DNA from: Bacilli bacterium
Lineage (GTDB): Bacteria; Bacillota_I; Bacilli_A; RF39; UBA660
Assembly (NCBI GenBank): GCA_017398945.1
Contig: JAFQES010000030.1
Span: forward strand, 28,586 to 92,585
DNA length: 64,000 nucleotides
Direction of reading: 5' to 3'
Of this stretch, positions 5,776 to 62,916 are shown piece after piece. A program made the translations under genes and the position numbers. The notes under the pieces are model-generated. The model was not told where the DNA came from, did not search any database, and was given only the letters and a program-made list of their open reading frames with translations. Position 1 is the stretch's first letter, and each line of letters starts with the position of its first letter.

Positions 5776-5820
5776 AAGTTTGTAAATTTCAGCTGCGTGC
5801 TTGTGTTTACAAACTTTTTT
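5776..5820 (+). terminator. Rho-independent terminator of the pduL-like gene
   Basis: aaagtttgtaaa ... tttacaaacttt stem followed by TTTTTT. Confidence 0.7.
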
Positions 5821-5830
5821 GTAGTATAAT
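5801..5830 (+). promoter_or_regulatory. Putative promoter of toxin-like peptide A (TTGTGT-18-TATAAT)
   Basis: TATAAT at 5825-5830 with a weak -35. It overlaps the 3' half of the upstream terminator. Confidence 0.35.
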
Positions 5831-5898
5831 ACCTTCACGGGAATATCAGTAGTTGGGTGTCTACCTCTAATCTTGTAAGAGAAAGGAGGTTTGATAAA

Positions 5899-5991
5899 AT
5901 GAATAAAAGAACTTTTATAATTAAAGTTCTTCATTCTTTCATTATCATTTTATTTCTTCTTATCATTATGATAGTGGTTATAAAAAAATGA
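5899..5991 (+). CDS. Type I toxin-like small hydrophobic peptide, copy A (30 aa: MNKRTFIIKVLHSFIIILFLLIIMIVVIKK)
   Basis: GAAAGGAGGT RBS 8 nt upstream. Single TM-like segment with a C-terminal KK. A paralogous peptide is encoded at 62718..62813 (-). The stop codon lies inside the convergent antisense RNA's terminator stem. Confidence 0.55.
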   Translation: MNKRTFIIKVLHSFIIILFLLIIMIVVIKK

Positions 5992-6100
5992 CACTTAATT
6001 TCATAATCAGAAATTAAATGTCTAACACATATAAAGTGGGTAGACATTCAACATTGCAAAACTGAATGTTCCCGTATTATTTTATGCAAGTTTTCTTGCT
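5980..6100 (-). ncRNA. Candidate antitoxin sRNA A, convergent and antisense to the toxin-A stop codon and 3' UTR
   Basis: Minus-strand promoter TTGCTA-17-TATAAT (plus coordinates 6107-6135). Terminator hairpin gacatttaatttc/gaaattaagtgtc followed by U7 (plus coordinates 5982-6022). Internal hairpins gcaag-N4-cttgc and gggaacattcag...ctgaatgtt..ccc. Conserved in copy B. Confidence 0.45.
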
Positions 6101-6106
6101 AAATAC

Positions 6107-6135
6107 ATTATATCATTTAATTTGATATTTAGCAA
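6107..6135 (-). promoter_or_regulatory. Sigma-A-type promoter for antitoxin sRNA A (TTGCTA-17-TATAAT)
   Basis: Reverse complement reads TTGCTAaatatcaaattaaatgaTATAAT. Confidence 0.45.
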
Positions 6136-6161
6136 GTTTAGGATAAATGAGGATTGAAAAT

Positions 6162-62512: not shown

Positions 62513-62521
62513 CTTTACATA

Positions 62522-62550
62522 TTGTAAAAATGTTAGTTCTATGATAATAT
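62522..62550 (+). promoter_or_regulatory. Sigma-A-type promoter for antitoxin sRNA B (TTGTAA-17-TAATAT)
   Basis: TTGTAAaaatgttagttctatgaTAATAT, positionally homologous to the copy-A antitoxin promoter. Confidence 0.4.
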
Positions 62551-62556
62551 TAGTAT

Positions 62557-62728
62557 GTAAGCAAGGAAACTTGCATAAAATAAAAAAGAGGAAACATTCA
62601 GTTTGGAAGTTGAATGTCTACCTCAAATAATATGGATAGACATTTAAGTCATAGTGATATGAACCTCATTTCCTTGTCCAAGAAATGGGGTTCATATCAA
62701 AGTCATGGACTTAAGTGTCATTTTTTTA
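62557..62728 (+). ncRNA. Candidate antitoxin sRNA B, convergent and antisense to the toxin-B stop codon and 3' UTR
   Basis: Hairpins gcaag-gaaac-cttgc and gagg..cattcag-tttggaag-ttgaatg..cctc. The terminator stem gacatttaagtc/gacttaagtgtc encloses an extra inserted hairpin (gatatgaacc...ggttcatatc) and is followed by T7. About 85% identical to the reverse complement of the copy-A element in its conserved blocks. Confidence 0.45.
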
Positions 62729-62813
62729 TTACAACTATTATCATTAATAGAAGGAATAAAATTATGGCTAGCAAAAATAATACTTTACAAACGTATTCAC
62801 GTTTTTTCACCAT
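62718..62813 (-). CDS. Type I toxin-like small hydrophobic peptide, copy B (31 aa: MVKKREYVCKVLFLLAIILFLLLMIIVVIKK)
   Basis: GGAAGGAGGT RBS. Paralog of the 5899..5991 peptide with a conserved KVL...IILFLL.IMIVVIKK core. The anti-SD ACCTCC in the 5' UTR can pair with the RBS. Confidence 0.55.
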   Translation of the reverse strand: MVKKREYVCKVLFLLAIILFLLLMIIVVIKK

Positions 62814-62876
62814 AGCACCTCCTTCCTAAAATAGAATGGAGGTAGACACTCAAACAACTGATTATTTCCTAAAACA

Positions 62877-62906
62877 ATTATACAATAAGTAAACTTATGA
62901 TATCAA
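62877..62906 (-). promoter_or_regulatory. Putative promoter of toxin-B mRNA (TTGATA-18-TATAAT)
   Basis: Reverse complement reads TTGATAtcataagtttacttattgTATAAT. Confidence 0.4.
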
Positions 62907-62916
62907 GGTAATTAAT

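Follow-up and report, generated by a model that had tools for sequence, protein, structure and literature searches.

A predicted type I toxin-antitoxin module and its apparently undescribed family in uncultured gut Bacilli

A 64,000-nucleotide (nt) stretch of the genome of an uncultured Bacilli bacterium (assembly GCA_017398945.1, contig JAFQES010000030.1, positions 28,586 to 92,585 of the forward strand; hereafter the window, numbered from its first base) contains two copies of a small module, termed copy A and copy B, in which a gene for a peptide of about 30 amino acids (aa) faces a predicted convergent antisense RNA gene. Copy B, the subject of this report, is probably a chromosomal type I toxin-antitoxin module of an uncatalogued family that is common in uncultured, AT-rich Bacilli of gut and rumen. 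The evidence is computational: the open reading frame (ORF) is constrained as coding sequence, each strand has a promoter of its own, the antisense terminator covaries, the two ends of the toxin messenger RNA (mRNA) pair with one another, and the two genes co-occur asymmetrically among relatives. The two modules are:

62513-62910, toxin on the minus strand: copy B module (family nhmmer profile, alignment)
5793-6141, plus strand: copy A, a paralogous module in the opposite orientation to copy B (nhmmer profile, alignment, terminator scan, folds)

Relatives were gathered from proteins, genomes and metagenomes. A profile of the two peptides searched with HMMER against 1.84 billion representative proteins returns 15 homologues (E = 5e-10 to 5e-4), whose contigs come without exception from gut or rumen metagenomes and share the layout of the module. 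A pattern drawn from the 3' RNA block only finds at least 120 stretches in species-representative genomes; the matches listed are nearly all metagenome-assembled genomes from rabbit, ruminant, mouse, chicken and human gut, labelled as uncultured Bacilli, Tenericutes or Erysipelotrichaceae. A pattern drawn from the leader (5' untranslated region, UTR) and ORF only finds at least 120 further stretches in metagenomes. The family thus numbers at least about 200 loci, in material from the rumen and from the guts of rabbits, mice, chickens and humans.

The toxin gene and its peptide

The toxin half of copy B and the reading frame opposite it comprise the following features:

62718-62813, minus strand: toxin ORF, 31 aa and a TGA stop, MVKKREYVCKVLFLLAIILFLLLMIIVVIKK (ORF list, homologues, purifying selection, helix prediction)
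62877..62906, minus strand: toxin promoter, -35 TTGATA, 18-nt spacer, -10 TATAAT (11 of 12 consensus positions)
62575..62870, minus strand: predicted toxin mRNA, ~296 nt, from a predicted start at ~62870 to the U-tract past the 3' hairpin
62838..62843, minus strand: anti-Shine-Dalgarno (anti-SD) sequence ACCTCC, directly after the 5' panhandle arm, pairing with the Shine-Dalgarno (SD) sequence in the local leader fold
62818..62822, minus strand: SD sequence GGAGG, 4 nt upstream of the ATG
62614..62829, plus strand: 71-aa ORF, a spurious antisense reading of the module (no Pfam match; not conserved)

An initial annotation of this locus, made from its sequence alone, had proposed a candidate type I toxin-antitoxin module in which GGAAGGAGGTGCT-ATG opens a 31-aa ORF on the minus strand, preceded by a TTGATA-18-TATAAT promoter and a 5' UTR block with an anti-SD. 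All of these elements are present: the ORF at 62718..62813, the promoter at 62906..62877 and the leader block GTGTCTACCTCC in the toxin 5' UTR. The aligned columns of the promoter are conserved across 99 family modules, and in the copy B leader the anti-SD and SD form a local hairpin of -13.6 kcal/mol. The ends of the mRNA are placed by the positions of its promoter and terminator.

In the peptide, a basic N-terminus is followed by one hydrophobic helix, and Lys-Lys forms the C-terminus. Structure prediction renders copy B as a single helix over residues 3-30 (predicted local distance difference test, pLDDT, 91.7). The family consensus is MKTKTFIIKVLKLIAIILFLLIIMIVVIKK, in which I17, L18, I28, K29 and K30 are invariant across 83 unique 30-aa ORFs taken from loci picked by the 3' RNA pattern and therefore blind to the ORF.

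In that set, drawn from the matches listed, column entropy at codon positions 1, 2 and 3 is 0.59, 0.39 and 0.83, and the ratio of nonsynonymous to synonymous polymorphism (pN/pS) comes to 0.44 in frame, whereas the two shifted frames give 0.85 and 1.36. Because variation tracks codon position and pN/pS is low only in frame, the ORF of about 30 aa is a real coding gene that evolves as a protein. The stop is TGA in 82 of the 83, and start and length are likewise conserved. An intact ORF of 27-33 aa occurs in 100 of the 121 evaluable antisense-anchored modules among the matches listed, with a recognisable SD at the right distance in 87 of these 100. These data bear on the idea that the locus is a small RNA (sRNA) or structured-RNA element in which the 31-aa ORF is a chance frame. 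Such an element would explain why, between copies A and B, the ORF is less conserved than the RNA blocks and why about 17% of relatives lack an intact ORF, but a chance frame would not be expected to keep codon-position variation, selection in one frame only, start, stop, length and a correctly spaced SD in loci chosen without regard to it, and this explanation is extremely improbable.

The same module accounts for the 71-aa ORF on the plus strand, which the initial annotation had already dismissed as spurious. An antisense ORF of at least 70 aa exists in only 2 of 99 modules, the longest being mostly 30-39 aa, and the 71-aa ORF has no Pfam match. The module also gives annotators a signature for intergenic regions of this kind.

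A sub-family (L028, L047, L064, L080, L102 with two copies, L116 and L131) encodes a different 27-aa peptide, M[GSE]KKDFLISSLIIIIILLIALLFIILK, ending in a TAG stop. It keeps the family leader and the 3' antisense block, and one example is in Firmicutes bacterium CAG:582.

The antisense RNA gene

The plus strand of copy B carries the predicted antitoxin gene:

62522-62550, plus strand: antisense promoter, -35 TTGTAA, 17-nt spacer, TG-n-TAATAT (extended -10; sequence reading)
62557..62727, plus strand: predicted antisense RNA, ~171 nt (fold, family alignment; ends deduced)
62561..62574, plus strand: antisense hairpin 1, GCAAG-GAAA-CTTGC, outside the overlap with the toxin mRNA
62588..62624, plus strand: antisense hairpin 2, GAGG-AA-ACATTCAG..TTGAATGT-CTA-CCTC, which mimics the 5' arm of the toxin mRNA in sequence and whose G-U pairs suit this strand only
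62639..62727, plus strand: antisense terminator, 12-bp stem GACATTTAAGTC/GACTTAAGTGTC (62639-62650 with 62708-62719) and U7 at 62721-62727 (fold, covariation)
62656..62698, no strand assigned: 18-bp hairpin formed by an insert in the terminator loop, the insert being 48 nt relative to copy A

A convergent TTGTAA-17-TAATAT promoter had been proposed at 62522-62550 and is found there, with a TG two bases upstream in addition. The promoter scan does not list it because only 8 of 12 consensus positions match. Across the family the -35 reads TTGNNA with a spacing of 17 nt, TATTAT or TATGAT serves as the -10, and 73 of 128 regions have the TG. Many relatives (e.g. L008 385-425, L032, L037, L024, L039) have a covarying hairpin whose loop holds the antisense -35 box; as seen on the toxin strand it stands downstream of the module, and it takes forms such as ACGACTT..AAGTCGT, GGAACTT..AAGTTCC and AGAACTT..AAGTTCT. 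With Ts after the stem on the toxin strand, this hairpin resembles an intrinsic terminator; neither window copy has it.

The predicted antisense RNA consists of three hairpins and measures ~115 nt in most relatives and ~170 nt in copy B. Its sequence is fully complementary to the toxin 3' UTR and last codons over ~62575 to 62727, the stop included. The two hairpins and the terminator stem with T7 over the toxin stop fold as the initial annotation had described (minimum free energy, MFE, -59.2 kcal/mol; z = -8.3). The U7 is templated by the toxin Lys-Lys (AAA AAA) codons and overlaps the TGA stop, and a U-tract follows this stem only on the antisense strand. Hairpin 1 was judged from per-sequence folds, as MAFFT shifts its two stem classes by one base and RNAalifold therefore missed it. 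It forms in 122 of 128 family members and takes either of two shapes, GCAAG..CTTGC or ATGAAG..CTTCAT, each compensatory to the other.

Covariation was measured on 120 unique antisense sequences (alignment A3), with hairpin 2 and the terminator as the tested structure and 500 shuffles as the control. In the terminator helix, 6 of 10 pairs show double, compensatory changes. Of the cells in the tested structure 97.9% are paired; shuffling gives 92.1 +/- 0.3%, and sliding the partners gives 22-42%. Double-change cells number 117 compared with 29 +/- 4, and none of the 500 shuffles reaches any of these measures. Single-sided changes are U-G on the antisense strand. One terminator pair is UG in 69 sequences, CG in 42 and UA in 9, with no mismatch; another is UA in 78 and UG in 31; hairpin 2 has pairs with GU in 94 and UG in 105. 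These wobbles become C-A mismatches on the toxin strand, where the terminator stem is mismatched in 69 of the 120 relatives. As the wobbles are pairs on the antisense strand alone, it is the plus-strand RNA that is under selection. The c/t versus t/c differences between copies A and B, earlier offered as compensatory pairs, prove to be such wobbles and mismatches; true compensatory changes are plentiful in the family. Judged from sequence comparison, the antisense gene is real, with a conserved promoter and a strand-specific covarying terminator, and its transcript is a predicted one. The family offers enough natural variation for the study of RNA structure by covariation.

The extra hairpin in the terminator loop, put earlier at about 45 nt, is a 48-nt insert relative to copy A that forms an 18-bp hairpin. 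Copy A and nearly all relatives lack it. A genomic repeat element was considered as its source and rejected, there being no second copy within the window. The insert resembles a terminator-like hairpin, CCYCATTTCTT..AAGAAATGRGG, that stands beside a T-run in L020 (~1800-1835) and L104. In these two orphan antisense genes the hairpin replaces half of the normal terminator, and a related hairpin serves as terminator in L010 too, which suggests a portable terminator cassette or a recombination scar.

Pairing between the ends of the toxin mRNA

The initial annotation overlooked a complementarity between the two ends of the toxin mRNA, which is found here over a median of 27 bp in the family. In copy B the arms are:

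62841..62870, minus strand: 5' panhandle arm AGGAAATAATCAGTTGTTTGAGTGTCTACC, starting where transcription is predicted to begin; -33.6 kcal/mol for its duplex with the 3' arm
62575..62622, minus strand: 3' panhandle arm GGTAGACATTCAAC..ACTGAATGTTTCCT (62589-62622), then a U-rich tract (62575-62588) (sequence pairing, fold, duplex energy)

In both copies the 3' UTR sequence GGTAGACATTCAAC is the complement of the leader save for two transitions. Full-length folds of copies B and A pair the first ~30 nt with the last ~35 nt before the U-tract (z = -9.4 and -7.0; MFE of the copy B mRNA, -94.2 kcal/mol). End-to-end pairing of at least 15 bp occurs in the MFE structures of 90 of 91 family mRNAs; in the reverse-complement control it occurs in 42 of 91, with a median of 14 bp.

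The arms also fit their own partners best. Cognate arm duplexes average -35.4 kcal/mol and non-cognate ones -33.0, the cognate duplex being better in 83 of 94 cases (p = 1e-12); the mean falls to -10.4 with a shuffled 5' arm, and the same duplex on the opposite strand averages -28.4. From copy A to copy B, GGGAA/UUCCC becomes GGAAA/UUUCC. Non-Watson-Crick cells in the arms comprise ~121 G-U on the toxin strand and ~5 of the A-C type, and this bias to one strand is a signature of the RNA rather than the DNA level.

The toxin mRNA probably ends at the 3' arm as well. Folded alone, 62575..62622 forms a hairpin that is the probable toxin-mRNA terminator. This separate hairpin and U-tract lie ~90 nt beyond the stem at the toxin stop, and the T-run columns at the toxin mRNA's 3' end are conserved in the family alignment.

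Distribution and decay of the family

The two halves of the module are lost asymmetrically. Among the matches listed, the antisense block is kept in 82 of 83 toxin-anchored loci with enough downstream sequence, L202 being the only one without it. In the opposite direction, 21 of 121 antisense-anchored loci (~17%), also among the matches listed, have a missing or damaged toxin, and 13 more have a weak SD (GTAGG, GAAGAAG). The lesions differ from locus to locus and include deletion of the whole toxin gene, leaving an orphan antisense gene; premature stops; loss of SD and start (L031); frameshifts (L117, L030); and an in-frame loss of helix (L107). At L092 (1195-1433) and L112 (4069-4229), which belong to two related metagenome-assembled genomes, a decayed toxin occupies the site orthologous to copy A (window 5793-6146) with the antisense gene kept; both share the gene downstream of copy A, at 69% and 60% identity.

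Such an asymmetry is expected if the peptide is harmful without its RNA. The initial annotation had reasoned that an ORF disrupted in close relatives with the RNA blocks conserved would point to an sRNA-only element. That pattern does occur in ~17% of relatives, and in the rest the ORF is intact and under purifying selection. The answer is mixed but supportive: the asymmetry speaks for a toxin-antitoxin module and not for an sRNA-only element, and chromosomal type I toxins are known to decay in this way.

A harmless small membrane protein, such as an accessory or regulatory peptide tuned by a cis-antisense RNA with no toxin-antitoxin relationship, would fit the coding constraint and the antisense gene equally well, the toxicity of the peptide being a prediction. 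L016 (1-1136) and L014 (1-524) each carry the family leader and a toxin-like ORF, but the IKK-stop ending is gone, there is no antisense block, and the ORF lies directly upstream of another gene (an ABC permease in L016), in an operon-like position; in L014 the helix contains Glu residues. These two may be domesticated or disarmed derivatives. Recurrent independent knock-outs of ORF, start or SD beside an intact antisense gene are hard to reconcile with a harmless product, as are the near absence of toxin-only loci (1 of 83 among the matches listed), the multilayer block to translation and the tandem arrays described below. The peptide also has the shape of a typical type I toxin, with charged ends and one helix (PMC8309996). 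A harmless peptide is therefore unlikely.

Orphan antisense genes also address whether there is an antisense transcript at all. The 3' block could instead be toxin mRNA 3' UTR only, that is, panhandle arm plus terminator, and it does act as a panhandle arm, next to a copy B antisense promoter with the modest consensus match noted above. Yet where the toxin, its promoter and the 5' arm are deleted, orphan antisense genes stay intact, promoter and terminator included. Furthermore, the wobbles of terminator and hairpin 2 pair, and the U-tract trails the stem, only on the antisense strand, and the -35 and extended -10 are conserved. A purely 3' UTR role is very improbable, and a type I module with its own antisense gene remains the preferred explanation.

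Many loci are multicopy. Among the matches listed, 31 of 119 have 2-4 copies within 8 kb, often as same-orientation tandem arrays, and 31 of 119 have a module within 300 nt of a tRNA gene; examples of tandem or tRNA-adjacent modules include L017, L018, L046, L048, L057, L059, L063, L066, L109 and L128. Multiple copies are a known trait of chromosomal type I systems, for which Fozo et al., as cited in PMC8594479, searched by tandem repeats.

Dispersed copies, frequent tRNA neighbours and imperfect inverted repeats of ~30 bp could also describe a miniature mobile element, with the repeats as transposition ends and the ORF and hairpins as incidental passengers. The only mobile-element hint seen is in L012 (895-2187), where a family member lies ~300 nt downstream of a DDE_Tnp_1 transposase gene. 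Against such an element stand the conserved promoters outside the repeats, an ORF under protein-level selection and repeat mismatches biased to G-U on one strand. Moreover, blastn of the module finds no match in plasmid and phage collections, and a 3'-block pattern finds only two chance matches in viral contigs, without module architecture. Transposition is thus a highly doubtful explanation of this layout, which a type I module explains better.

Reference databases are silent on the family. Rfam, which holds 13 type I antitoxin families (PMC8594479), gives no match in the whole window at gathering threshold and only chance eukaryotic microRNA and small nucleolar RNA matches in the copy A and B regions at E up to 10. 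The peptides have no match in Pfam (E up to 10) or NCBIfam and nothing meaningful in PHROGs, PADLOC or Protein Data Bank sequences, and an exact look-up of the 31-aa peptide finds no called gene. On these searches the family is apparently undescribed, though of a known kind, type I toxin-antitoxin.

Its invisibility to annotation arises because a 30-aa gene is rarely called and, when called, is often read through TGA under the wrong code. Several family proteins in the database (P0004-P0008; L008 176-595) read TGA as Trp (KKWHL…) because their contigs were gene-called with genetic code 4; P0006, at 139 aa, is a read-through product that spans two tRNA genes. Other homologues bear an N-terminal extension that is translated leader, ECLPS corresponding to GAGTGTCTACCTCC.

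In L010 (489-2700), a diversity-generating retroelement (MutS_I, bAvd and RVT_1 genes) has a homologue, MKKREYYVQGLKYIAIILSLLLAIIVVIKK, immediately downstream. Behind this homologue, a hairpin, CCCCGTTTCTTGGG..GAAATGAGG, and T6 stand in place of the usual antisense block.

Proposed mode of action

On the minus strand, a sigma-A-type promoter would give rise to an mRNA of ~300 nt for the 31-aa peptide. Translation would be held off in two ways: 1) the upstream ACCUCC anti-SD pairs with the SD, and 2) the panhandle buries both mRNA ends and stacks on the anti-SD/SD helix. On the plus strand, the convergent extended -10 promoter would yield the three-hairpin antisense RNA, which would pair with the mRNA over an overlap of ~95 nt, probably from loop-loop contacts first.

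The antisense RNA complements the 3' arm and is thus nearly the same in sequence as the 5' arm, so that antisense binding and the panhandle would be mutually exclusive; for the same reason, pairing would displace the 5' arm of the panhandle. The resulting long duplex would most likely mark the mRNA for double-strand-specific decay (RNase III-type, as in bsrG/SR4) and for 5'-end-dependent decay. Without the antisense RNA, the stable mRNA would eventually be translated, and the peptide would insert into and damage the membrane. The transcripts and their ends, the toxicity, the RNases involved and the route by which translation is activated enter this scheme as inferences.

A bolder version can be put forward tentatively, as possible but rather less than probable: the antitoxin RNA would mimic the 5' end of the toxin mRNA, compete with that end for the 3' panhandle arm, open a self-protecting mRNA and expose its ends to decay instead of blocking the ribosome site, and the family would be a dominant, lineage-wide one in uncultured, genome-reduced gut Bacilli. 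If true, this is a new regulatory logic for type I systems, in organisms outside all type I toxin-antitoxin surveys.

Several observations weigh against the toxin-antitoxin interpretation or weaken particular parts of it. Transcripts and toxicity are predictions from sequence, and all hosts are uncultured. The scheme gives no account of how translation is switched on, as the upstream anti-SD would stay after the panhandle opens. The anti-SD signal itself is moderate, the SD being paired in the local MFE structure of 53 of 82 leaders compared with ~34 expected. The search pattern largely dictates the stems of hairpin 2, which do not count as evidence; it also fixes part of the 3' arm, whose invariance has no weight. 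The advantage of cognate arms could come partly from DNA-level homogenisation of an inverted repeat. Lastly, L016, L014, L010 and L202 look domesticated or antidote-free.

Setting in the window

Copies A and B are the only two in the window (family nhmmer profile, E = 3e-78 and 1e-59). Their homology, claimed earlier from the peptides and flanking elements, amounts to 76% identity in the module alignment, with UTR blocks more conserved than the ORF. Copy B lies in the 390 bases that separate two housekeeping genes, one of them NifU_N (SufU-type) and the other for RNase J, in agreement with the placement between sufU and rnj given initially. The G+C content of the window is ~25%, and a scaffold from a rumen metagenome matches the window.

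Homologues called with code 4 raised the idea that TGA encodes Trp in the window. It is rejected: TGA terminates 8 of the 55 long ORFs, and 114 TGG codons specify Trp, so that the window reads TGA as stop.

5900-5992, plus strand: copy A peptide MNKRTFIIKVLHSFIIILFLLIIMIVVIKK, within the copy A module

The antisense region of copy A folds like that of copy B minus the insert (z = -4.5), and its terminator is the sole terminator-like site that the terminator scan reports at copy A (0.1 expected). Upstream of copy A, the neighbouring gene has a terminator hairpin (AAAAAGTTTGTAAA…TTTACAAACTTTTTT, 5776-5822) that overlaps the -35 box of the copy A toxin promoter.

Comparison with known type I systems

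Type I systems are known only from Proteobacteria, Firmicutes and Tenericutes, mostly from cultured model species, according to reviews (PMC12390103, PMC8309996). Copy B has the general features of the class: an ORF below 60 aa, conserved as coding sequence, for a hydrophobic one-helix peptide, and a predicted antisense gene with its own promoter and terminator that is complementary to the toxin mRNA. Neither toxin nor antitoxin has Rfam, Pfam or NCBIfam similarity to TxpA/RatA, BsrG/SR4, BsrE/SR5, YonT/SR6, SprA1 or SprG.

The closest layout is that of the Bacillus subtilis pairs txpA/RatA, bsrG/SR4, bsrE/SR5 and yonT/SR6, whose antisense RNAs are placed at the 3' side and reach into the end of the ORF (PMC8594479). 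In bsrG/SR4, pairing at the 3' side leads to RNase III decay and to SD sequestration (PMC8309996). Shared with this group are a Gram-positive host, convergent genes, an antisense RNA over the 3' side and ORF end, a small one-helix peptide with a basic C-terminus and an SD in a hairpin. Unlike it, the toxin mRNA here is predicted to be closed by a panhandle of ~27 bp whose 3' arm is the antisense target, and the antisense terminator is built on the Lys-Lys-stop codons of the toxin. The hosts also differ, being Bacillus prophages in that group and uncultured gut Bacilli with reduced, AT-rich genomes here.

Fst/RNA II (par of pAD1) likewise has convergent promoters, a peptide of ~30 aa with a transmembrane helix and chromosomal copies with paralogues (PMC7472228). 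Its 5'-UH sequesters the 5' end of the toxin RNA and its 5'-SL sequesters the SD (PMC7472228); the panhandle, which takes up the first transcribed bases, and the anti-SD/SD hairpin would be analogous to these, not homologous. In contrast to Fst, the peptides have no PXXXG motif and no Pfam Fst_toxin match; none of the 30 positions has Pro or Gly as a common residue in the 83 sequences, one of which has a single Pro. There is no bidirectional terminator common to both RNAs and no second complementarity of the DRa/DRb type to the toxin translation start: duplexes of the antisense RNA with that start average -18.5 kcal/mol, compared with -17.7 for shuffled RNA (90 loci), which is no advantage. 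Interaction is therefore possible only within the overlap, and the lack of par-like second complementarity, PXXXG and a shared terminator places the family outside Fst.

In hok/Sok and aapA/IsoA of Proteobacteria, a long-distance 5'-3' interaction locks the full-length toxin mRNA, local anti-SD hairpins come into play first, and chromosomal copies are multiple (PMC6733600). The present family resembles these in a 5'-3' closed full-length toxin mRNA, as prediction and comparative data indicate here, in a local anti-SD hairpin and in multiple chromosomal copies. It differs in that the anti-SD is upstream and local, whereas in hok/aapA the 3' end supplies it, and in that the antisense RNA would target the 3' arm itself, not the 5' part or ORF of a 3'-processed mRNA. 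There is no sequence relation, and the phylum is different. The family thus joins the Gram-positive 3'-antisense layout with a closed mRNA of the hok/AapA type.

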